Notes: a model not told the origin generated them from the sequence alone. Positions 1 to 62,874 are shown, counted from the first letter of the stretch. The stretch is DNA of 64,000 nt from Chlamydiota bacterium (GCA_016178055.1 JACOUC010000035.1:77325-141324), one strand, 5' to 3'. Program-made: numbers and translations.

Positions 1-117
1 AACAGTTATTGCCCGCTGTACACCCATTTCATGAAGACTTGCCTTTTCTTCTAAAATACCAGCGACATGACGCAATATTTGAGCCGTCTTAGAAACAACT
101 TTTTGGACTCTTTTCAT
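1..117 (-). CDS. Hypothetical protein, 5' part only (gene runs off the window start). The ATG at 117 overlaps the stop of the upstream gene as ATGA.
   Basis: Minus-strand frame is open from the ATG at 115-117 to position 1 and reads MKRVQKVVSKTAQILRHVAGILEEKASLHEMGVQRAITV. Start/stop overlap suggests translational coupling with 114..2024. Confidence 0.4.
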   Translation of the reverse strand, partial: MKRVQKVVSKTAQILRHVAGILEEKASLHEMGVQRAITV

Positions 118-2024
118 ACGAGCACTTCTTGATAAACCTTTCGAGAAGAGTCTTTAGATTCTAAAAACGCAGAAACCGTTTCTTCATTAAGAGGAGACAG
201 GCATTCTTCTCTCATTCTTTCTGACCATGCATTCAAGCGCTCTTGCTCCTCTTTTGAGAGAGATAATTTCTTGAGCACTTGCTCACGCAATTCCTCTACC
301 GAATATGCAGGTGGATCAAACTCTGAAAACCACTCCAGAGGATTCATATTAAAATCCGTTTCTCGCCCAACGGAAATGACAGGAGTTCCTGTAAGGGCAA
401 CCTCAAGGGCAGACGTCGATGCTGAAACGACCGCACATCTAACTTTATCTAACCATTCCTCCATGATGCCTTCTACAAAGACCATATGCCCGGGCAAAGC
501 AAATTCTCTGGACCAAGAAGTAAGACATTCTTTAGAAGTCATCGGATGTGGTTTAAGATAGAATATGATTCCTTCTTTTGCAGAGAAAGCCCTAACCAAT
601 TTATGAAGCAATTCATAAGACGCAATATCTTCCAAAGATAGGACAACCAACACCTTCCCATTCACATCAGTCCCATTAACCAAACCCCGAAAGAGATGTA
701 AATATCTCAAAGAAGGACCTACCCGAAGTTTATCTTGAGAGAAACCTTCTGACACCATCAGATTTCGTGTAAATAGAGAGTTGCAAACAATCACATCAGG
801 ATAGAACATGGCCCGATCTTCTCCAGATGAGCAAAACAGACAAAGCCAAAGGGGATAAGGTGCAAGATAATGCTGATAACCTACCTGTAACACATGGGGC
901 ATAAATTGGCGGAAAGCCAATGATGCAGGTTTTTCAGAAATCATATTTTCAAATGTATCAATAAATATATCGATCTTAATATCTTGAGCACGTAACTTTT
1001 TTATAAGGCGATAATGGAGAATAAACTGCGCAGAACTTCGATCAAGACATTGCTCCCGACAGGCCTCTCTAAAAAGGGCCCGCGTATCCATTCCATCAAA
1101 TATTTTATCTTTGAGAGGCAATGCCACCTGAGAAATAGCAATTCCCATAGCCCAGAGATAATCGCCAAGGGAATAAAAATCTTCAGGAATAATATATTCA
1201 TTTTTAAATTGCCTAAACCACTGAAACGCATCTTTACGAGATCGTTGAATGTTGGACAAGATCGGCAGATAAGCTACTTCATAACCTTTTTTACAAAGCT
1301 CTGTGGGGAGCATTCGAAAATAACGGTCTCGTTTAGAAAGATCAGACACAAAATGCGTTTCATCAACCCATGAACGAATCAAAACGCGGGGACGATCCGT
1401 GGACTCCTTCGTACGATCATTCACTTGGCGTGTCTTCCTTGCATCCCTTCTTGCCCTCATACCCTCCCATAAATAATCAAACCACGAAAGCCACATTTGA
1501 ATACTCCATTTGAGCCAGACCTTGAACCTACCTTCTCGCTTAATAACATAAACTTTATGAACAGCACTTAAAGACCTTTCGAGAGACTGTAAAACCGCTC
1601 GGCTCTCCACAACCATCAAGAGTGACTCAGTGGCATGATTTCCATAATCCTCTCCCATCTTCACATAACATATCTTATGATAAAGGGAATCTAACGCTGT
1701 ATTCTGCTCGGAAACACGCGAGCTTAAAAAGCGCAAGGTGGGATGAGATATTCTCAAACGACCTATCCAATCGAGAAATGGCCTTCTTAATTTCATTGCA
1801 ATATCTTGGAACACCTTTCCTGAATGAATTCTTTCCAATCCTCTTTGACTGAGCATTTCCTCCCAAAGACACATACGAAAATAATCACGCCCCAGATAAA
1901 GCCATTGAGAAGGTAGGTTCCGTTTTTGAATAGACAACGCCTTGAGCCTTTCCAGAGCACGTTCGAGTTTGAATCGAGCAGGGACGAGAAACACGACAGA
2001 AGATCTTAAAGGAGATGGCATCAA
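114..2024 (-). CDS. Large uncharacterised GT-B-like glycosyltransferase candidate with a K-x-HP motif (KpsC/KpsS/TagF-like?). Paralog of 6278..8416.
   Basis: 636-aa ORF. Its C-terminal 120 aa are about 70% identical to the 712-aa ORF, with shared GRETDFNM.PLEWFSEFDPP.YSVEEL. A conserved KPHPM motif is reminiscent of CMP-ulosonate or CDP-glycerol-dependent HP-motif transferases. Confidence 0.6.
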   Translation of the reverse strand: MMPSPLRSSVVFLVPARFKLERALERLKALSIQKRNLPSQWLYLGRDYFRMCLWEEMLSQRGLERIHSGKVFQDIAMKLRRPFLDWIGRLRISHPTLRFLSSRVSEQNTALDSLYHKICYVKMGEDYGNHATESLLMVVESRAVLQSLERSLSAVHKVYVIKREGRFKVWLKWSIQMWLSWFDYLWEGMRARRDARKTRQVNDRTKESTDRPRVLIRSWVDETHFVSDLSKRDRYFRMLPTELCKKGYEVAYLPILSNIQRSRKDAFQWFRQFKNEYIIPEDFYSLGDYLWAMGIAISQVALPLKDKIFDGMDTRALFREACREQCLDRSSAQFILHYRLIKKLRAQDIKIDIFIDTFENMISEKPASLAFRQFMPHVLQVGYQHYLAPYPLWLCLFCSSGEDRAMFYPDVIVCNSLFTRNLMVSEGFSQDKLRVGPSLRYLHLFRGLVNGTDVNGKVLVVLSLEDIASYELLHKLVRAFSAKEGIIFYLKPHPMTSKECLTSWSREFALPGHMVFVEGIMEEWLDKVRCAVVSASTSALEVALTGTPVISVGRETDFNMNPLEWFSEFDPPAYSVEELREQVLKKLSLSKEEQERLNAWSERMREECLSPLNEETVSAFLESKDSSRKVYQEVLV

Positions 2025-5410: not shown

Positions 5411-6354
5411 CGTGAATCCTTTCGCCGAGATGGTCCAACCACATACTGGCCTTCAAGAGAATCCTCCATACCCGATCTACCCTTCACAAAAAACTGGTTC
5501 GTCAATTCTCCCAACCCCTCCACACGTGCCGTGTAGATATCCCCATGCTGGACAAAATGCATCCCCACCGTATCGGGCGGATTCCCTGTCAGAATAACAT
5601 CCCAAGGCTCAAGGGTGATCCAAGTCGAGAGCCAGGACACAATCTTAGGCCATTGCCAAACCTGTGCACTCGAACGAGCACGCCGAATGACCTCACCATT
5701 TTGAATCGCTTCAATCAGGCAGTCAGACGGGTCAAAATCTGTATCGATCCAAGGACCGATCGGACAGAATTGATCCGGACATTTTGATCGAGCGAGATGA
5801 TGGTCCCGATGATCCACGTTTTCTACGGTCACATCATTTCCAATGGTAAATCCTAAAATTCCTTCTCTCACCTGATTTTCTAAAATATTCTTGAGCGGTT
5901 TTTTAATCACGACTGCCAGTTCTGCTTCTCCCCACCAGGGAAGAGCTGGAAACGGGTTTATGACCGCTTCACCAGGACCGCACACACTTGTTGAGGATTT
6001 CAAAAAAACAAGAGGTTCGTTCATCATCGACGAATAGCCATCAATCCCTGGAAAATTGATCGCGATGGCTAAAATTTTATTGGGACGACACGGGGCAAGC
6101 AACGAAACCAAATCTAAAGTTCCAACTTTTTCCTTCCTTTCTACTTTGACAAGAGGATCTCCTGAAACCCGATAAACGTCAGAGCCTTCTACACATCCAT
6201 ACTCTGGATGACCCTCATTACTTTTGTATCGAACAAGTCTCAAATTTTTACTGTTAAAAAAACTCTTGGATTTTTTTTCATGCAAGTGCTTCTTGAAAAA
6301 TCTTTTGGGAGGAAGCCTCTTTAGGCTTGACAAATGCAGAGATTGTATCTTCAT
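5407..6354 (-). CDS. Fumarylacetoacetate hydrolase (FAH) family hydratase/isomerase (HpcG/HpaH-like).
   Basis: KILAIAINFPG, EAELAVVI, GFTIGNDVT and GDVILTGNP motifs. The first ~40 codons are probably not translated. A TTG at about 6235 would give MRLVRYKS.... Confidence 0.8.
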   Translation of the reverse strand: MKIQSLHLSSLKRLPPKRFFKKHLHEKKSKSFFNSKNLRLVRYKSNEGHPEYGCVEGSDVYRVSGDPLVKVERKEKVGTLDLVSLLAPCRPNKILAIAINFPGIDGYSSMMNEPLVFLKSSTSVCGPGEAVINPFPALPWWGEAELAVVIKKPLKNILENQVREGILGFTIGNDVTVENVDHRDHHLARSKCPDQFCPIGPWIDTDFDPSDCLIEAIQNGEVIRRARSSAQVWQWPKIVSWLSTWITLEPWDVILTGNPPDTVGMHFVQHGDIYTARVEGLGELTNQFFVKGRSGMEDSLEGQYVVGPSRRKDSR

Positions 6355-8416
6355 TGATGGTCGAAAGGCATTCTTTTTTCATCTCTTCGGCCCAAATCTT
6401 CAAACGTGTCCGTTCCTCTTCTGAGAAAGATAATTTCTTGAGCACTTGCTTACGCAATTCCTCCACTGAATAAACAGGCGGATCAAATTCCGAAAACCAT
6501 TCCAGAGGATCCATATTAAAATCTGTTTCACGCCCCACACGAACACACGGTACTGCAGCCAATGCAATTTCAAGAGAAGCGGTCGTAGAGGCAGCAATAA
6601 CAGCACACGCCGCTCGTGAGAGCCAATCAGAGATTGCCCCTCCTACACAAATCATGTGAGAAGGCAAAGTCTCCATTCCTAGCCCGCATTTCTCATCAGA
6701 TTTCGTCACGAGAGCGTCGAGTCCGCTTTGGATGCGAGGAAGACGACCGAGGCCATGCGAGGCATACTTTGCAGTATGTTGAGTGTGGCCGACCGAGTCT
6801 GCACGGAGAGACGAGGCGGAATCGGCGCTCGCAGTAGAAATGTGATGAGAAATGCGGGCTAACAGAGTGTGGAATCCCTTTTCCGACATCATCGGATGAC
6901 GTTTCACCCAAAATCGAATCCCCTCGTCTCGTGGGAAAGTGCTGACAAGCTTTAACAAAACTTCCAGGGTCGCCATTCTATCCAAAGATAGAACAACCAG
7001 CACGGTATTAGGCTCTGGAGCCTTTTTAGAATCCTTTGAGAAGAAGTGAAGATATCGAAAGGAGGGCCCTACCCGCAATTTACCTGAAGGAAAACCTGCC
7101 TTCTGCATCTGAGCAACCATGAATGGAGAATTACAAACAATCACATCTGGATGAGGAGAAATCGTGAGCTCTTTGGGCGTTGTGTATTTTGACATCATGA
7201 ACGGCTCCATTGCAATATAATGCTCAAACCCTACCGTCATTGTTTTGGGCATCCACTGTCGAAAGGCGATCACTTGAGGCTTTTCATTCAGCATGTTTTC
7301 AAACATATCGATAAAGATATCAATGGAGAAACCTTTCTTAGATAATTTCTTGATCAAACGATAATATAAAATGAACTTTACTCCTCCCTTATGGCAAGCC
7401 TGGTCACGACAAAATTCTCGAACAAGGGAAGAGATATTTAATCCCTCAAAGGAGTGTTTACCCAAGACCAACCAAGCCTGACGGATGACAACAGAGGCAG
7501 CCCAAACGTAATCGAAAATTGAATAAAAATCTTCAGGAATTAAATAGTGTCCTGGGTGGGCATGAAACCATTCGAAGGCACTTCGCAAAGATCTTTGAAT
7601 TTGCGAGAGCCATGGAATGACGAGCACCTCATAGCCGCGCTTCCTTAGGAGCTCCGCAAGCCCTGAAAAATAACGATCTTGAGGAATATTATTGCTAAAA
7701 TAGCTTTCGTCAATACACGTATGGATCACAACACGCTTCTGAAAACTTCCGCTTGATGAAGGGAAGCTCTCTCTCTCGCCTGCGTCACGTGCATCTTGTA
7801 GAACTTTCCGGGCATTTAAAAGAAACCGTATCCATATCCGGACCCAACGATAAAACCAACGGAATCTCGGAAGGTTTCCCTTTAAGGAACGATGAGGGCA
7901 AACACGTTTCCTCAATTCAGGAATATCGGCAAGGGCCCTCAACACAGAATCATGTTCGGCTACGATCAGAATAAGTGAAAAATCACTCTGGGTTTCGTCA
8001 AATGCAATGCGTAGATAGCACATCCGATGGAACAATGAATCAATCATGGTATCACGCTCTGCAATCTTGGAACTCCACCAGACAAAAGAATTATTTTTTT
8101 CTCCCAATTCGGCAATCCATTCCAAATAAGGTTGTTTCCAGCGTCTCGCAAGCCCTTGAAGTTTGGAGGCATAATTCACACGCTCAAAATTTTCACCTAG
8201 CAAGGACTCCCACGCTAGCATCCTCTCGTAATTTCTTCCTAAGTAAATCCACTTCTGTTTCAAGTCCGACGAAGAATGAATGATGCCCAACTTTTCTTTC
8301 AACTTTTTGCGTTGAAAATGGTCTAAATCCTCCGCCAAGAACAAATAAATTTTAGATTGCATAGGCCATGATCTCCCGCACAGGTTTTGCAAGTTCAAGT
8401 CCCGCAATCGCAGCAC
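6278..8416 (-). CDS. GT-B-like glycosyltransferase candidate with HP motif, paralog of 114..2024. It carries an in-frame 182-bp repeat-element insertion.
   Basis: 712-aa ORF. It shares GRETDFNMDPLEWFSEFDPP and the KRHPM motif with the 636-aa paralog. The extra ~61 aa (ARISHHISTASADSASSLRADSVGHTQHTAKYASHGLGRLPRIQSGLDALVTKSDEKCGL) are encoded by the element at 6680..6861. Confidence 0.7.
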   Translation of the reverse strand: MLRLRDLNLQNLCGRSWPMQSKIYLFLAEDLDHFQRKKLKEKLGIIHSSSDLKQKWIYLGRNYERMLAWESLLGENFERVNYASKLQGLARRWKQPYLEWIAELGEKNNSFVWWSSKIAERDTMIDSLFHRMCYLRIAFDETQSDFSLILIVAEHDSVLRALADIPELRKRVCPHRSLKGNLPRFRWFYRWVRIWIRFLLNARKVLQDARDAGERESFPSSSGSFQKRVVIHTCIDESYFSNNIPQDRYFSGLAELLRKRGYEVLVIPWLSQIQRSLRSAFEWFHAHPGHYLIPEDFYSIFDYVWAASVVIRQAWLVLGKHSFEGLNISSLVREFCRDQACHKGGVKFILYYRLIKKLSKKGFSIDIFIDMFENMLNEKPQVIAFRQWMPKTMTVGFEHYIAMEPFMMSKYTTPKELTISPHPDVIVCNSPFMVAQMQKAGFPSGKLRVGPSFRYLHFFSKDSKKAPEPNTVLVVLSLDRMATLEVLLKLVSTFPRDEGIRFWVKRHPMMSEKGFHTLLARISHHISTASADSASSLRADSVGHTQHTAKYASHGLGRLPRIQSGLDALVTKSDEKCGLGMETLPSHMICVGGAISDWLSRAACAVIAASTTASLEIALAAVPCVRVGRETDFNMDPLEWFSEFDPPVYSVEELRKQVLKKLSFSEEERTRLKIWAEEMKKECLSTINEDTISAFVKPKEASSQKIFQEALA
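6680..6861. mobile_element. MITE-like 182-bp element with 19-bp perfect terminal inverted repeats (TAGCCCGCATTTCTCATCA ... TGATGAGAAATGCGGGCTA), inserted in-frame in a coding gene.
   Basis: Terminal inverted repeats read directly at 6680-6698 and 6843-6861. The internal ~125 bp is about 90% identical to 45378..45520. The insert is read through in the host gene's frame. Confidence 0.6.
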
Positions 8417-26194: not shown

Positions 26195-26863
26195 TTATTC
26201 CGCAATAAACCAATAATAATCGCCTGTATATCCGACTTCCTGAAAGAGTTTCTTCCAATCATTCACATGCATCATGGTTTCAGCGGTCAAAACCCATTTG
26301 TAAAGTTGTTCTTGCTCTTTTTCATTTCTCCAAGCATCCATGGTGATATAGCTGTGGCCACGGCTGACCCTCTGAATTTCTCTAAGGGCCTTCTTCAAAG
26401 GCTCAAGAGAAAGGTTGTGGATAGAATTGATAGAGATTACGAGATCAAAGCTTTTATCTGGAAAGGGTAAGCTTTCTGCACTCGCTACTTTAAGAAATGG
26501 TTTCACTGTAGGTATGGCGTGTTCAATGGCATATTCGCTCACGTCCACCCCTGCAACTTGGCATTCAGGCATGAGCTCTCTAAAATCATGCAACAAAAAT
26601 CCCTTTGCACATCCAATGTCTAAAACAGCAGCATTCTCTGGCAAACGATAATGATCGCGAAATCGTTTTGCGATATCTTTCCAACGCCCATCATATTTAT
26701 AGCCTCCATATCCCATCACACGAGGACCATCAAAAAACTCCCGACCAAATTGTTTAGCAATTCGGATAATTTCGGAAGTTTTCTCTTTGGCCCTTTGATC
26801 GTAATCACGAAGAGCTTTAGGGTGAGAATTTAAAAGATTAATTTCTGCCATCACGAAGGGCAA
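26195..26863 (-). CDS. Class I SAM-dependent methyltransferase.
   Basis: VLDIGCAKGF motif I. Confidence 0.8.
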   Translation of the reverse strand: MPFVMAEINLLNSHPKALRDYDQRAKEKTSEIIRIAKQFGREFFDGPRVMGYGGYKYDGRWKDIAKRFRDHYRLPENAAVLDIGCAKGFLLHDFRELMPECQVAGVDVSEYAIEHAIPTVKPFLKVASAESLPFPDKSFDLVISINSIHNLSLEPLKKALREIQRVSRGHSYITMDAWRNEKEQEQLYKWVLTAETMMHVNDWKKLFQEVGYTGDYYWFIAE

Positions 26864-26923
26864 TCCCTAATCCAAATAAACAATGCGCCATGGGTTCATA
26901 CCCGGTATGAACGACTTCATCAT

Positions 26924-27979: not shown

Positions 27980-28078
27980 ATTCTTAATGTCACAACCATC
28001 ATCGCTTTTTACGCATACAATCCAACACCGATGCCAAATAAATAATGGGCCATGGGATAATATCCTGTATGAACGACT

Positions 28079-28249
28079 TCATCGCCCATCATACCTATAG
28101 CCTCCGTATCCCATGATCCGAGGACCATCGAAAAATTCTGGTCCAAACTGTTTCGCAATTCGAATAATTTCTGGGGTCTTTTCCTTAACCCTTTGATCGT
28201 AATCCCGAAGGGTTTTAGGTTGGGAGTTTAAAAAATCAATTTCTGACAT
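28079..28249 (-). pseudogene. Remnant 5' fragment (56 codons) of the SAM methyltransferase gene, a duplicate of 26683..26863.
   Basis: Translation MSEIDFLNSQPKTLRDYDQRVKEKTPEIIRIAKQFGPEFFDGPRIMGYGGYRYDGR stops, whereas the intact gene reads MAEINLLNSHPKALRDYDQRAKEKTSEIIRIAKQFGREFFDGPRVMGYGGYKYDGRW. Confidence 0.6.
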
Positions 28250-34760: not shown

Positions 34761-35603
34761 TTAAATTGGGACCGAGCTCTCATCATGTCTCTTCTGAAAA
34801 TGAAGCATCAAACTAAATTGTTCCTGCACAGACATTCCACCATCCATCACAATACATTGACCAGAAATATAGGATGCGTTGGGTGAACAAAGAAACAGCG
34901 CCGCATGAGCAACATCATCAGAACGCCCTGGCTGTCCCATCGGATGGCAAAATTCAACCAGTTCTCGATAACCTTGATTGTCATCTTGCCTATAACGATC
35001 AAGATCTTCATCCCGAATAATAACGCCAGGCAATAATGCATTAACTCGAACACCTTCTGCACCTCCTCGAACAGCAAAATAGCGAGTCATCTGAGTCAAT
35101 CCCACTTTCGCAATTTGATAGACAGGAGAAACTTCACGTGCAGAAAGCAGTCCTGTGATTGAACTGATGTTAACAATGCTTCCCCCGCCATTTTTTGCCA
35201 TTGTAGAAATAGCTGCCTGAGACGCAAAGAACGCAGCCCGAAGATTAACAGCCATTTCGAGATCCCAACTTTCTTCATCATCCGATTTGTCCCGAGAACG
35301 GACAGCCCTTGCATTATTCACCAAAACATCAATCTTTCCATAACTCCTGACAATCTGACGAATCATCTCTTGTGGTGTCCCCTTCTCACTTAAATCAACT
35401 TTCAAAAACGTAGAAGAGAGCTTTCGATCACGTAAATCTGTTACGGTTGTATGTCCCTCTTTATCATTGAGATCGCAGACAATAACCATCGCGCCTTTTT
35501 GAGCAAATGCATTAACAATGTTTTTACCAATACCTCGTGCGCCTCCTGTAACAGCAACTATTTTCCCTTCAAAAAGAGATAGAGAATCAGGCGTGATGGA
35601 CAT
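34761..35603 (-). CDS. SDR family oxidoreductase.
   Basis: VAVTGGARGIGKNI, NNAR and YQIAKVGL. Confidence 0.85.
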   Translation of the reverse strand: MSITPDSLSLFEGKIVAVTGGARGIGKNIVNAFAQKGAMVIVCDLNDKEGHTTVTDLRDRKLSSTFLKVDLSEKGTPQEMIRQIVRSYGKIDVLVNNARAVRSRDKSDDEESWDLEMAVNLRAAFFASQAAISTMAKNGGGSIVNISSITGLLSAREVSPVYQIAKVGLTQMTRYFAVRGGAEGVRVNALLPGVIIRDEDLDRYRQDDNQGYRELVEFCHPMGQPGRSDDVAHAALFLCSPNASYISGQCIVMDGGMSVQEQFSLMLHFQKRHDESSVPI

Positions 35604-35811
35604 ATTCCAAGGGCTCCTTTACAATTTGATCCCAATATTTTTCTATCCAGGCAACAACACCTCCAACACCTTCATTCAAAGAGATTTTATTTGACCATCC
35701 TAATGTCTTTCTCGCCTTCGTCGAATCAATCACATAAGCTTGATCTTGTCCCAAGCGCTCCGGTGCAACAACCGTAACATCCTCAAAAGATTTTCCTAAA
35801 ACAAATGTCAC
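35587..35811 (-). pseudogene. Orphan C-terminal fragment of an NDP-sugar 4,6-dehydratase/epimerase.
   Basis: ...VAPERLGQDQAYVIDSTKARKTLGWSNKISLNEGV... is a dehydratase C-terminus. A second copy of the same 3' end is found at 38272..38424. Confidence 0.55.
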
Positions 35812-38108: not shown

Positions 38109-38271
38109 TCAAATACTCCTTGATTTCCCATAAATGCGAAGGTACATTCGTCCTTCACCCCCAGATGTTTCGTCCAGCTAATTTCTTCAACCAGTGGTTG
38201 GAGATTTGCGTTTTTTTGACATGCATCATCTCCTGCTTCAGACACATCACTCATAATCAGATTTTTGAAAT

Positions 38272-38940
38272 TAGGGCTTGTGAACATAATCCAAAGGCTC
38301 CTTCGTAACTTGATCCCAAAATTGATCAATCCAATTCACAACCCCTTTAAGACCTTCTTCGAGAGAAATTCTTGAAGACCACCCTAAAGTTTTCCTCACT
38401 TTTGTCGAATCAATCACATAAGCTTTATCTTGTCCCAAAGGCAGCGTAGGGAGTCGAGGGATTCATGGGAGAAGTCTCTGTCACATTCCCCTCACAGGTT
38501 CCATAAACCTCGGGAGAAGAAATATGTACATATCGCTTCAAATATTTCTTATCTTTGAGATGATGAATTAATTGCGCCAAGGCCACGGTATTGGTCTGAA
38601 ACCAATGATGAGGATTTTCCCAACTTGGAGCCACTTCGCTTTGCGCTGCAAAATTAACGATGTATTCTGGCTGAAACTGATCCAAAGTTTCTAAAATACG
38701 CGACATGTCTTTATTAAAATCCAATTGATGAAATTTAAAATTCCCATTTACAGAGTGGCGTTTATAGGGCAAAAAAAGCTCCGTCTTTTCTGGAGAACGG
38801 CTCGCCCCCATCACTTCGAAACGCCCTTCCTCTAAAAGCAAATCTATAAAATCACTTCCAGAGAAAGAATTGCTTCCAAGGACTGCAACCTTTTGTCTTC
38901 TGTGTTCTGTCTTCTGTATTCTGTCTTCTGTATTCTGCAT
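38272..38940 (-). pseudogene. NDP-sugar 4,6-dehydratase gene with a large internal deletion and frameshift.
   Basis: The N-terminal 171 codons (VLGSNSFSGSDFIDLL...PYAA) stop at 38425. The C-terminal ~45 codons (LGQDKAYVIDSTKVRKTLGW...) continue in another frame, and about 130 central residues are absent. Confidence 0.6.
38893..38940. repeat. Imperfect 7-bp (CTGTNTT) / 14-bp tandem repeat, ~3 x 14 bp, at the 5' end of the dehydratase pseudogene.
   Basis: ttgtcttctgtgtt ctgtcttctgtatt ctgtcttctgtatt ctgcat read directly from the sequence. Confidence 0.6.
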
Positions 38941-43841: not shown

Positions 43842-44179
43842 TCTTCATGCATTGGATACAAACCCTCTCGTCTGGCTCGAAGTTTGGAAGGACACTGCTG
43901 AGAGGATATTTTGATGGAAGATAAATCGAAATCTAGTAAATCACATTCATCTTCGGAAACAACTATTTCTTTTCCTGCTTTTCTAAGCAACATTATTAAT
44001 TCATGTATGTTATGAGTCTTCTTTAAACCCATCGACAATTCTATACACAACGCCTTGAGATATTTTTCTGAAGATTGTTGTAAGTTTTGAAGACAGGGGT
44101 TGTAAAGATGGCTTTTAAGCAATATCTTTGCTGCCTCAAGATTCTCTTCAGCATATTTGGAGCCAATCATGAGTTTCAT
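43778..44179 (-). CDS. HEPN-domain protein (toxin-like partner of the upstream nucleotidyltransferase).
   Basis: 133-aa helical protein with a KKTHNIHEL R/K-x4-6-H-like motif, overlapping the MNT gene by 4 nt. Confidence 0.55.
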   Translation of the reverse strand: MKLMIGSKYAEENLEAAKILLKSHLYNPCLQNLQQSSEKYLKALCIELSMGLKKTHNIHELIMLLRKAGKEIVVSEDECDLLDFDLSSIKISSQQCPSKLRARREGLYPMHEDCFENCRLYSRSSPWISLCYN

Positions 44180-44481
44180 CGTTCATAGACAATCTCCCCC
44201 CTATTTATTTCCGATAAAAAGAAATCATTTTGTACATGGGGTCTTACCGGGATGATGTCTACAGCGATTTTAAGAAGCACAGGACGTATTTGCTTTCTAT
44301 ATTTTAAAGCTAGTTGTAGATATGATTTGTTGCTGCTTTGAAATATTGCTACATCCATGTCATGCGGATTTTCTGATTTTAAAAATGAACCAAATATAAC
44401 AATACGCTGAATCTCTTTGTCGGATGAAAGACAGGAAACAAGTTCTTTCGTCAATTCTTTTTTTAAAGGGGCCGTAAACAT
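44176..44481 (-). CDS. Minimal nucleotidyltransferase (MNT) domain protein.
   Basis: IVIFGSFLKSENPHDMDVAIF (GS...D.D). Confidence 0.7.
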   Translation of the reverse strand: MFTAPLKKELTKELVSCLSSDKEIQRIVIFGSFLKSENPHDMDVAIFQSSNKSYLQLALKYRKQIRPVLLKIAVDIIPVRPHVQNDFFLSEINRGEIVYER

Positions 44482-44543
44482 ATTTTTCTAATCCACGTTT
44501 GCCAAAAATTACTCCATTCTCCTAAAACAAACTTCCTAATCTG

Positions 44544-45580
44544 TTAACCCAGATGCTTAAACCAATCTTTCGTCGCAACTTCAATAGAATCTTTATCCCA
44601 GAGCGGGGCATCCCGCCACGCGTCAATGTGATCCAGCATGATGCGAACACCCTTTTGAAAGGAAACTTTGGGTTGCCAGTGTAAAATCCGCTTTATTTTA
44701 TTGATATCCGCAAAGGTACAATTGGGTTCTCCAGGTCGTTTGGGAATATGAATCACATCCCCGCCCAATAATTCTACCAACTCGTTCACACGATAAGTAT
44801 TCCCAGACCCCACATTAAAAATCTCGCCTGACACATTTGATTCGGCTGCCCGAAGAAGTGCATCCGCTACATCCGTGACAAAAGTAAAATCTCTGGTTTG
44901 ATTACCATCTCCCACAACGGTGAAGGGTTTCCCCGCTAATTTCTGGGCCAGAAAAACACCAAAAACCGCCCCATAAGTTCCTGTTGTCCTAGACCGAGGA
45001 CCATACACATTAAAAAATCGAAGAGAAACGGCAGGCATCTTGTAAGTCTTCTCCCAGTGAAGCACATATTGTTCACCCAAATATTTGGTTAAAGCATAAG
45101 GGTACATCGGTCGAATCGGCGCCGTTTCTGGCGTAGGATATTGATCGGGAATTCCATAACAAGAAGAAGAAGCTACGTAGATAAAGCGTTTGACACCTGA
45201 CAAGCGTGCTGCCTCTAAAACGGAGACTGTTCCATCGACATTTGATCGATGATATTTGAGAGGTTCTTGAATTGAAGGGACAATATCAGCCAAGGCAGCT
45301 AAATGAAAAACCCAGTCTATGTTTTGAAATAAAGGCCTTATGTCAATCACATTTTCGACACCCATTTTATAAATCTTTAGCCCGCATTTCTCATCAGATT
45401 TCGTCGCGAGAGCGCCGAGTCCGCTTTGGATGCGAGGAAGACGACCGAGGCCATGCGAGGCATACTTTACAGTATGTTGAGCGTGGCCGACCGAGTCTGA
45501 CGAAGCAGACGAGGCGGAAGCAGACGTTCGACCAGATGACTTCCGATAAAACCAGCTCCTCCTGTAACCAAGCAACGCAT
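44544..45580 (-). pseudogene. NAD-dependent epimerase/dehydratase gene disrupted by a truncated copy of the MITE-like element.
   Basis: ATG at 45580 gives MRCLVTGGAGFIGSHLVERLL, then runs into the element and hits TAA. The rest of the protein (KIYKMGVENVIDIRPLF...HLAA...YxxxK...) is in a different frame, and about 35 residues of the Rossmann region are replaced. Confidence 0.6.
45378..45520. mobile_element. Truncated second copy of the MITE-like element (left terminal inverted repeat present, right one absent).
   Basis: tagcccgcatttctcatcagatttcgtcgcgagagcgccgagtccgctttggatgcgaggaagacgaccgaggccatgcgaggcatacttt... is about 90% identical to 6680..6820. Confidence 0.55.
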
Positions 45581-45581
45581 C

Positions 45582-46940
45582 TTAATAAACTCCCTCAACA
45601 GCTGTTCTCTCACCGAGAAAATCTGTACTCCAAGCTAGACGAGGTCGAACAGTACCACACCATCTCCCATAATATTCTTTCCTCATTTCACCTGTATCGT
45701 GAACATTAAATGACAGAACATAATCTTGAAGAATTTGTGTATCCGAAATCCCTTTACCAATAATGGCCGCAATACTATAGAGTCCTTCATTTAAAAAATT
45801 ACCGGGTATGATACATACAGTCTGAAACAGACCCACCGGATAAGGTTGTCCGCTCCATGGGTCTTCGGTCAATGAAATGGATCTATGATTACTAGAAGAA
45901 AGAACGTAAGTTCCGACCGGATCTCGTAGCCAAATTGCTGCATACAATTTTGTTTGCGATTTCAAATTCCAATAGGTAATCTCAATTCGAATTTCCTTCG
46001 ATATATCTACATCTGCCGTAGGTCCTTCCACCCCATCCTGAAAAATTCGTACTGAATGAAGACGAACAAGGTCATTCCCGGGAGCATTCGCAACATCTGG
46101 CCAAACCATCTCTCCTCCTAAAGAGCGAGCCACGGCCAGATACTCCTGAACAACTTCAGCGGCAGATCCATTTTTAACCACTTCTCCTTCTTTTAAGAGA
46201 AGAGCTCTCGGGCACAAATTCATAATGCTCGGCATATTGTGAGATACAATCACAACCGTGCGCCCCTCTTTCGCAACATCCCCCATTTTTCCCAAACACT
46301 TCTTCTGAAATTCGGCGTCGCCAACAGCAAGAACCTCATCCACCAAAAGCACCTCAGGCTCCAGATGTGCCGCAACAGCAAACGCTAACCGCACATACAT
46401 TCCGCTTGAATAGCGTTTGACAGGCGTATCGATAAACTTCTCCACTTCAGCAAAAGCAACAATTTCATCAAATTTTCTTCGAATTTCGATTCGTTTCATC
46501 CCCATGATCGCGCCATTGAGAAAAATATTTTCTCGCCCCGTAAGCTCTGGATGGAAGCCCGTCCCCACTTCCAAGAGGCTTCGAACACGACCGTGAATTT
46601 CCGCCCTGCCCTCTGTGGGCTCTGTAATGCGGGAAAGAATTTTGAGGAGCGTACTTTTCCCGGCGCCATTGCGACCAATGACACCAACGACCTCGCCTTG
46701 CTTGATTTCAAAAGAGACATCTTTCAACGCCCAAATTTCATTATCGTTCAAAGGTTCAAAGGTTGAAGAGTTCAAAGATTTTCCAAAGTTCTGTAATCTT
46801 CTGATCTTCGAGTTGGCGAAACGAAAAGGGGCTGTAGCAAGCTGCGTTAAACGATCGCGAAAACTATAGTAACACTCCCGCTCCCCAATTTTGTAGAGCT
46901 TCCCTACATTTTCAACCCGAATGGCGATGTTGTCAGACAT
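45582..46940 (-). CDS. wzt: O-antigen/polysaccharide ABC exporter ATP-binding protein (Wzt-like, with a C-terminal glycan-binding extension).
   Basis: Walker A GRNGAGKST, signature SGM, Walker B LLVDEVLAVGD, and a ~200-aa C-terminal beta-rich domain. Confidence 0.85.
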   Translation of the reverse strand: MSDNIAIRVENVGKLYKIGERECYYSFRDRLTQLATAPFRFANSKIRRLQNFGKSLNSSTFEPLNDNEIWALKDVSFEIKQGEVVGVIGRNGAGKSTLLKILSRITEPTEGRAEIHGRVRSLLEVGTGFHPELTGRENIFLNGAIMGMKRIEIRRKFDEIVAFAEVEKFIDTPVKRYSSGMYVRLAFAVAAHLEPEVLLVDEVLAVGDAEFQKKCLGKMGDVAKEGRTVVIVSHNMPSIMNLCPRALLLKEGEVVKNGSAAEVVQEYLAVARSLGGEMVWPDVANAPGNDLVRLHSVRIFQDGVEGPTADVDISKEIRIEITYWNLKSQTKLYAAIWLRDPVGTYVLSSSNHRSISLTEDPWSGQPYPVGLFQTVCIIPGNFLNEGLYSIAAIIGKGISDTQILQDYVLSFNVHDTGEMRKEYYGRWCGTVRPRLAWSTDFLGERTAVEGVY

Positions 46941-49786: not shown

Positions 49787-49919
49787 AGGCATATGCACTT
49801 GACTTAAAGATGTCGTCCATTTGTAGTCACCCCATTTATGGGGCCATGCATGGATTGCCCGATAAATCGGGCGACTACGCTTGACGGATCAAGAATACTT
49901 GAGTCAAGTGTATATGCCT
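49787..49919. repeat. 133-bp nested palindromic element. Outer inverted repeat AGGCATATGCACTTGACTT/AAGTCAAGTGTATATGCCT, with a 56-bp core GTAGTC-[hairpin]-CATGCATGG-[hairpin]-GACTAC.
   Basis: Read directly. Inner hairpins are GCCCCATTTATGGGGC and GCCCGATAAATCGGGC. Related to the element at 62492..62774. Confidence 0.55.
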
Positions 49920-62492: not shown

Positions 62493-62774
62493 GCTTTTTC
62501 TGTAGTCGCCCGATTTATCCCCCCACCCCATATGGATGACTGGCCTTTCCTGATGAGATTTGGTTTACTCATTATGAAGGGTTCAACCAAAAAACAGCAG
62601 CTAAAAAAAGAAAGGAACAGTCACCCATCCATTCTAATCCAGTTGTTATCTTTAGCACGTTCGTAAGCTTATGACTCGTGCATTGATCGCTAAACAATCC
62701 CGCCACCTTCGATAGATTGGGTGGGGGGATAAATCGGACAATTCATGCAACAGCCCCATAAATGGGGCGACTAC
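62492..62774. repeat. 283-bp element bounded by inverted repeats: GTAGTCGCCCGATTTATCCCCCCACCC ... GGGTGGGGGGATAAATCGG...GCCCCATAAATGGGGCGACTAC.
   Basis: Shares its terminal structure with the 56-bp core at 49823..49878. Confidence 0.5.
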
Positions 62775-62874
62775 AAAATGAGCCTCACTCCCATATCAAA
62801 GGCTATCATAAAAACAGATTCATTTCAATTCCCTGAATGATATTGCTACTCAGGTATTGGGAGTCGCTCAAAGA

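Follow-up and report, generated by a model that had tools for sequence, protein, structure and literature searches.

How did a gene for a glycosyltransferase-like protein come to contain a 60-residue segment bounded by inverted repeats, and why does its reading frame remain open? The question is raised by a stretch of 64,000 nucleotides from a Chlamydiota bacterium (GCA_016178055.1, JACOUC010000035.1:77325-141324; hereafter the window), in which an earlier note, made from the sequence alone, had marked the segment 6680-6861 inside such a gene as resembling a miniature inverted-repeat transposable element (MITE). Our analysis arrives at the same kind of element with altered boundaries: with a probability of roughly 0.88, what was inserted here in frame is a MITE, a non-autonomous transposon, from the insertion sequence (IS) family IS1380. 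The in-frame MITE insertion is a real event of a kind already known, and the locus offers a clean, datable case in which a transposon has lengthened an enzyme-like protein by a loop of 60 residues while leaving the frame intact.

Insertion point and reading frame

The open reading frame (ORF) of the host gene, 6278..8416(-), runs through the element as ...HPMMSEKGFHTLL-ARISHH...SDEKCGL-GMETLPSHM.... The encoded protein (P0001, HYS07_04890) has the previously given length of 712 residues when translated from the GTG start, whereas the NCBI annotation uses a later start codon and gives 694. In a BLASTP comparison with the paralog (P0034, HYS07_04860), the alignment breaks at the insert, where 69 host residues are set against 9 of the paralog. 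The segment is thus missing from the paralog, as had been claimed, and equally from 22 further homologs, since in an alignment of 24 sequences the 60-residue block occurs in the host alone. A database search returned the host protein, the paralog and 54 other homologs, nearly all of 586-666 residues (overall range 432-830). Subtraction of the 60 residues, which are rich in Ser, Ala, His, Gly and Arg, leaves the host linker at the same length as in the other aligned homologs. The host retains all 31 residues that are invariant in the family alignment as well as the nearly invariant ones, and apart from the insert the gene contains neither frameshift nor stop. Judged from these alignments, the segment is an insertion and not an ancestral part of the protein.

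A repeat search of the window delineated inverted-repeat arms of 25 nt (6680-6704 and 6837-6861) with 96% complementarity, whose outer 19 nt form the perfect terminal repeats reported before. Three window sites match this 19-mer with up to three mismatches, as against 0.03 expected from shuffled sequences. The end points of the element itself were set by comparison with about 60 complete relatives, and they place a 176-bp core between a CTAG and a CTAA tetranucleotide. Of 59 elements, 31 have the same 4-mer on both sides (CTAG/CTAG 19 times, CTAA/CTAA 7 times and TTAG/TTAG 5 times); these counts are biased, since TAG was required at one end by the search pattern. Between the two flanks, the first and the last base of the 4-mer co-vary. 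The target is of the type YTAR, mostly CTAG and TTAG, and is duplicated around the relatives. A 2-bp TA duplication as in Tc1/IS630-type elements was ruled out, because outer and inner bases of the flanking 4-mers co-vary (TTAG/TTAG and CTAA/CTAA, 12 elements). Core and 4-bp duplication together amount to a net gain of 180 nt, or 60 codons, at the window site. As 182 is not divisible by 3, the 182-nt unit of the earlier note cannot be what was inserted; its statement that the insertion is in frame stands, while its size of about 61 residues has to be replaced by 60 (176 bp at 6683-6858 plus the 4-bp duplication).

Read in the direction of the gene, the site is CTG-[TTA G]...[CTA G]GA-ATG. Leu followed by Gly is encoded by both versions of the target, so that the protein before insertion read ...HTLLGME..., and the deduced empty site is ...CACACTCTG-YTAG-GAATGGAG.... 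The element entered a Leu codon (YTA/G, the slash marking the point of insertion) of the linker ...HTLL/GME..., 10 residues past the invariant KxHPM motif. The paralog alignment that had been suggested as a check thereby located the insertion point, and the CTAG/CTAA duplication was defined with the aid of the relatives.

Five of the six frames of the window copy contain stop codons; the host gene uses the sixth, which has none. With YTA as a codon, the terminal repeats read L-A-R-I-S-H and D-E-K-C-G-L, and both are translated, as the earlier note had it. One step on, the target itself is a stop codon (TAG or TAA), and in the third phase the right terminal repeat presents TGA-TGA. The terminal repeats hence limit the usable phase, and an element survives in frame only if phase and strand are suitable and its length is a multiple of 3. 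In the YTA phase, 17 of the 27 complete elements of such length are stop-free, compared with 10.6 +/- 2.2 after shuffling of the interiors; since related copies are not independent of one another, the excess is no more than suggestive.

Terminal repeats, transposases and relatives

At least 120 stretches of the genome collection contain the exact terminal 19-mer TAGCCCGCATTTCTCATCA. Among the matches listed are Acidobacteriota, Planctomycetota, Gammaproteobacteria, Desulfobulbales, Chlamydiae, Omnitrophica, Verrucomicrobiota, Myxococcota and others, and most of these matches belong to elements of 50-270 bp with the same inverted ends and varied interiors. At three loci, the repeat pair, with the same end over 16-19 nt, lies 1.7-2.25 kb apart and encloses a single ORF of 468-647 residues. 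Two of these ORFs, in L116 and L058, match the IS1380-family transposase profile NF033539 with 378-386 bits (cut-off 180; E = 1e-113 to 1e-115) and PF13701 with E = 1e-151 to 1e-154; the third, in L026, is a homolog of both by tblastn. An element annotated as IS1380 family on the Pseudomonas putida plasmid pKF715A has ends similar to those of the window element, CTAG-CCCGCATTTCTCAC...GTGAGAAATGCGGG-CTAG. Full-length elements of Omnitrophica, Acidobacteriota, Planctomycetota and Pseudomonas share near-identical ends of 14-19 nt and the CTAG duplication, and their transposases are 46-62% identical. It is unusual that the terminal 19-mer is identical across phyla though the compared transposases are only about 62% identical; conservation of the ends far exceeds that of the enzyme. 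IS1380 elements are defined in ISfinder by one DDE transposase ORF, CC ends and direct repeats of 4-5 bp. The CCCGC...GCGGG ends and the 4-bp duplication agree with this definition; for IS1247, a 5-bp repeat is listed (PMC3281130). The designation of the segment as MITE-like is borne out by its terminal repeats, target duplication and many copies, and by the occurrence of the same ends on autonomous IS1380 elements.

The 176-bp core contains no transposase gene, its sole open frame being the read-through of the host. With a GC content of 0.57, the element stands apart from the rest of the host gene (0.44) and from the window (0.42). The 182-nt segment folds as one long hairpin (-52.7 kcal/mol as DNA, z = -9.2; -83.9 kcal/mol as coding-strand RNA, z = -6.0) with a 25-bp basal stem in the RNA. 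A ribozyme or other structured RNA was considered, because CUGAUGAG and GAAA in the right terminal repeat are reminiscent of a hammerhead core, and was rejected on the order of the motifs, which does not fit a hammerhead. An Rfam search of 6500-7050 yielded sub-threshold snoRNA and miRNA noise only, with nothing near the gathering score. An intein or self-splicing intron was likewise discarded: the insert begins with Ala and ends with Gly-Leu followed by Gly, without the junction residues of an intein, and there is no Rfam match near the gathering score.

The window holds a second copy, 97% identical over 122 nt, which has an intact left end following TTAG and has lost about 40 nt at the right end, the terminal repeat included. 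It lies in a gene for an NAD-dependent epimerase/dehydratase, whose N-terminal Rossmann start with the GxxGxxG motif (MRCLVTGGAGFIGSHLVERLL, ORF 45467..45613) does not share the frame of the remainder (44544..45575); the product lacks positions 20-42 of the Pfam profile, and the gap amounts to about 23-30 residues. The sister Chlamydiae genome JACPWU01 contains copies with 90-93% identity at no fewer than 13 loci. In eight of its nine complete copies the net length is not a multiple of 3, and no long frame runs through eight of nine; they were judged intergenic solely by this lack of a long open frame. A JACPWU01 copy with a net length of 183 nt (L098 6875-7053) is inserted in frame into an NTP_transf_5 gene, 16 residues downstream of its Met, and is read in the same element frame as the window copy (LARISHH...DEKCGL). 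A different member of 128 bp (L111 1218-1345) is in frame within a Pirellulaceae sulfatase gene (Pfam Sulfatase E = 1e-59; LARISHQ...GEKSGL), where 390 residues precede and 98 follow the element; the 44 added residues separate the catalytic domain from the C-terminal part. With the 63-residue insert peptide as query, a protein search recovered only three short ORFs of 74-102 residues from JACPWU01, annotated as hypothetical proteins; as a census this search is weak, given that the host protein itself was not returned. The proposed search for copies covered the window and the genome collection, and the two outcomes that the earlier note had named as speaking against its reading are not what we found: no homolog possesses the segment, and additional copies are plentiful.

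Elements of about 176 bp form a family of their own, which comprises L008 2225-2400, L011 2506-2681, L015 6833-7007, L076 5008-5184, L101 1388-1565 and the window copy. With a net length of 180 nt, it is found in Chlamydiae, Gammaproteobacteria, Acidobacteriota and unclassified bacteria. Internal blocks are conserved (TCTRCTGC, CTCGGTCGGCC, CTCAACRTACT...AGTAYGCC and CGGTCG), and the central hairpin displays a compensatory change, ATACT..AGTAT versus GTACT..AGTAC. Conservation of the encoded peptide across the family was looked for and rejected, because indels shift the frames and most copies have no long open frame through them. Two further candidates for in-frame insertion, L004 4742-4971 and L009 2963-3138, were dismissed, as they are located just upstream of twin-arginine signal peptides (RRREFL and RRDFL) and so precede the gene; the open frame through them could mislead gene callers into an N-terminal extension. 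At L086 4759-4800, two elements abut with a single common TTAG (..GAAATGCGGG-TTAG-CCCGCATTTC..), an arrangement expected if a duplicated target serves as a new target.

Table 1. Coordinates of the insertion in the host gene, the second copy and the full-length elements with the same type of ends. Positions without a locus designation are those of the window.
Feature	Position	Strand	Remarks
Host gene	6278..8416	(-)	GT-B-fold protein, surface-carbohydrate biosynthesis type (weak TIGR04326 match); insert = residues 520-579
MITE core	6683..6858	(-)	Strand whose single stop-free frame the host gene reads; 176 bp, ends CCCGC...GCGGG
Left terminal inverted repeat	6683..6704	(+)	CCCGCATTTCTCATCAGATTTC
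Right terminal inverted repeat	6837..6858	(+)	GAAATGTGATGAGAAATGCGGG
Target-site duplication, left copy	6679..6682	(+)	CTAG
Target-site duplication, right copy	6859..6862	(+)	CTAA, one base unlike the left copy
Paralog without insert	114..2024	(-)	P0034, HYS07_04860
Second MITE copy	45381..45519	(+)	97% identity over 122 nt; left end intact after TTAG (45377-45380)
Disrupted NAD-dependent epimerase/dehydratase gene with second copy	44544..45613	(-)	
Full-length repeat-bounded element	L116 4225-5955		IS1380-family transposase ORF
Full-length repeat-bounded element	L058 125-1880		IS1380-family transposase ORF
Full-length repeat-bounded element	L026 2325-4574		ORF is a homolog of the L116 and L058 transposases by tblastn
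Transposase gene adjoining one repeat	L070 1-1503		Homolog by tblastn
Full-length IS1380-family element	L121 411-2073		

Consequences for the protein and competing explanations

We propose that an IS1380-type DDE transposase, made elsewhere, would recognise the terminal repeats of about 17-20 nt (CCCGCATTTCTCATCAG), cut at the CCC ends and integrate the element at YTAR with duplication of the tetranucleotide, so that mobilisation would occur in trans. Because the gain is 180 nt and the host reads the only stop-free strand and phase of six, the frame is carried across the element, which adds a loop of 60 residues to the predicted protein. This loop is probably a tolerated passenger, neutral or mildly harmful, and the paralog in the same cluster may buffer any functional loss. 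Genic copies would be found in frame because out-of-frame insertions into genes have been purged; they would be survivors of selection rather than products of targeted insertion.

An AlphaFold model of the host protein, computed with the 24-sequence alignment, has a mean pLDDT of 85 and a pTM of 0.86. It matches GT-B glycosyltransferases and UDP-GlcNAc 2-epimerases, which supports the description of the protein as glycosyltransferase-like. In the model, residues 520-579 follow the strand 501-505 with the invariant K-x-H-P-M motif and the helix starting at 512, and precede the strand 588-591. The first 10 residues of the insert prolong the native helix with a pLDDT of about 89, and residues 541-581 fall below 50. 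The insert is accordingly modelled as a partly disordered helix-to-strand loop in the C-terminal half of the GT-B fold. Helix-to-strand turns of Rossmann-like half-domains face away from the substrate cleft, and by analogy the loop would lie on that side. The new surface loop suggested by the earlier note agrees with the position in the model; that the protein tolerates it is what we infer.

Several observations weigh against the reading as an IS1380-family MITE inserted in frame. The two copies of the target duplication in the window element, CTAG and CTAA, differ by one mismatch. Both junctions are known from the assembly of a metagenome-assembled genome alone, and the host protein is known from sequence and model, its production and activity being putative. 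A long hairpin in the mRNA could depress expression of the host gene. The epimerase gene that carries the second copy is, by its reading frames, clearly broken and probably a pseudogene in the same polysaccharide cluster. Tblastn searches for an IS1380 transposase gave only chance-level matches in the 64-kb window and none in 13 sampled 8-kb blocks of the sister genome, and present-day mobility within the source genome thus finds no support in the window or in the sampled sister blocks. Scans of JGI metagenomes for the empty-site pattern returned 0 matches, as did the control with the flank alone, so the locus simply lies outside that collection.

The most probable alternative is that the insertion killed the gene, or that the gene was already dispensable, and that the frame is open by luck in a young pseudogene of a decaying polysaccharide cluster. 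We consider this a genuine possibility, though short of an even chance. With one of six frames free of stops, the odds of an open frame by accident are roughly 1 in 6 and not small; a paralog exists, the epimerase gene that houses the other copy of the cluster is plainly disrupted, and the mRNA would carry a hairpin of -84 kcal/mol with its 25-bp basal stem. Against it, the gene has no frameshift or stop apart from the insert and keeps the 31 invariant and the nearly invariant residues. The element, moreover, is situated in a loop between secondary-structure elements while the rest of the model is confident, and two other genes, the JACPWU01 NTP_transf_5 gene and the Pirellulaceae sulfatase gene, carry in-frame elements with the same terminal repeats.

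A bolder conjecture goes beyond the single insertion: the 176-bp element might represent an old cross-phylum MITE lineage that has been shaped for survival inside genes in the manner of the Rickettsia palindromic elements (RPEs), with a piggyBac-related transposase that perhaps excises it precisely. We regard this as unlikely, even if a number of findings fit. Chlamydiae, Gammaproteobacteria, Acidobacteriota and Pirellulales all have elements with the net length of 180 nt; within an ORF, a YTAR target leaves two phases, one of which meets TGATGA in the right terminal repeat, so that a single phase is readable; the interior is stop-free on one strand despite indels that change the peptide; and in no fewer than three genomes, genes have taken up such elements in frame. 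If true, an RPE-like strategy of selfish DNA in coding sequence would be widespread outside Rickettsia.

Less probable still, and in our view a slim prospect, is co-option of the element, in which the loop or the RNA/DNA hairpin would confer a new specificity, regulation or switching by precise excision. The recurrence of the 176-bp family at the same length (net 180 nt) in several phyla, with conserved blocks and a compensatory hairpin change, would be in line with this idea, but the peptide is not conserved among the members, in which indels shift the frame. Similarly, stop-free frames are commoner than in shuffled sequences (17 versus 10.6 +/- 2.2), yet in most copies no long open frame is present, which is the sole criterion by which they look intergenic. 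Whereas the native helix continues through the first 10 insert residues with a pLDDT near 89, most of the insert is predicted to be disordered, and the search with the insert peptide gave three short ORFs only. Misplacement of a repeat into the gene during assembly is very improbable: the source is metagenome-assembled and the element is a multi-copy repeat, but the insertion is exact to the codon, is flanked by the YTAR duplication and upon removal restores the linker length of the family, and the same protein is recorded on two contigs, one of which has 205,580 bp. That the 60 residues are an ancestral domain or loop lost by the paralog and the other homologs has nothing but the open reading frame in its favour and is next to impossible in view of 23 aligned homologs without an equivalent, database homologs of 432-830 residues, the recurrence of this DNA in non-homologous contexts with terminal repeats and duplicated targets, and a GC content of 0.57 compared with 0.44 for the gene.

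Neighbouring repeats and known systems

The window contains further repeats. A second family with the ends TTGTAGTCGCCCCATTTATGGGGC and GCCCGATAAATCGGGCGACTAC, in which GTAG is followed by a short palindrome, is present at 49820-49879 and 62501-62777. It looks like GTAG-tagged doublets of repetitive extragenic palindromic (REP) sequences (compare PMC3733652); window positions 49837-49919 are 97.6% identical to L094 4350-4432. The same family is nested in L031 (about 7180-7240) and L113, where it is inserted into sister-genome copies of the IS1380 MITE. A direct repeat of 43 nt (TTACACCACATCCGCAAAAAA...) occurs five times, at 44488, 48083, 48855, 49362 and 50005, with a spacing of 500-3600 bp. 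These repeats adjoin small ORFs, one of them nucleotidyltransferase-like (44176..44481), and could represent conserved termini of small paralogous genes arranged in a row. Pairs of paralogous segments (26682-26921 and 28023-28249; 35585-35754 and 38269-38438), with 75-82% identity over 170 nt, indicate that the polysaccharide cluster has several duplicated genes besides the glycosyltransferase-like pair.

Insertions of the kind described here are one route by which proteins can gain new loops. The locus also exposes small elements with identical ends in many phyla, tied to IS1380 transposases, the bacterial relatives of piggyBac. Such elements break assemblies, create spurious small ORFs (the 'hypothetical proteins' of 74-102 residues) and lengthen annotated proteins, and their recognition would lead to better annotation of metagenome-assembled genomes.

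A literature search found no publication on IS1380-derived MITEs or on this terminal sequence. The window element resembles IS-derived bacterial MITEs, here of IS1380, in being short and non-coding, with CCC ends, a 4-bp duplication and many copies, and its terminal repeats are those of full-length IS1380 elements. The ends of piggyBac, a superfamily of eukaryotic transposons, also start with CCC, and precise excision is its hallmark. Its duplicated target is likewise a TA-centred tetranucleotide, with the difference that the window family uses YTAR and not strictly TTAA. In piggyBac trees, IS1380 transposases are the prokaryotic outgroup (PMC10813416). ERIC, BOX and the Anabaena MITEs are intragenic too (PMC10969869), but differ from the window element in sequence and transposase family.

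In-frame fusion of MITE-borne open frames with host genes is not unusual (PMC10969869), and RPEs (Ogata et al. 2000) are summarised there as the extreme case of such fusion. Compared with these published descriptions of RPEs, the window copy is likewise a palindromic repeat of about 150-180 bp that lies in frame, adds a peptide and occupies an insertion point apparently compatible with the fold. The differences are that it belongs to Chlamydiae rather than Rickettsia, that its terminal repeats are clear, that its target is duplicated and that an autonomous partner can be identified. The earlier view that the element is RPE-like rather than an ordinary MITE therefore holds for the behaviour of this copy and finds no support for the family, as eight of nine sister copies have no long frame; by type, the element is an ordinary cut-and-paste MITE of the IS1380 family. 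Whereas RPEs, according to the same descriptions, are often in frame within genes, only one of nine complete copies of the IS1380 MITE family in the sister genome lies in a long open frame; as far as these sequences indicate, residence in frame is the exception in this MITE family, unlike in RPEs.

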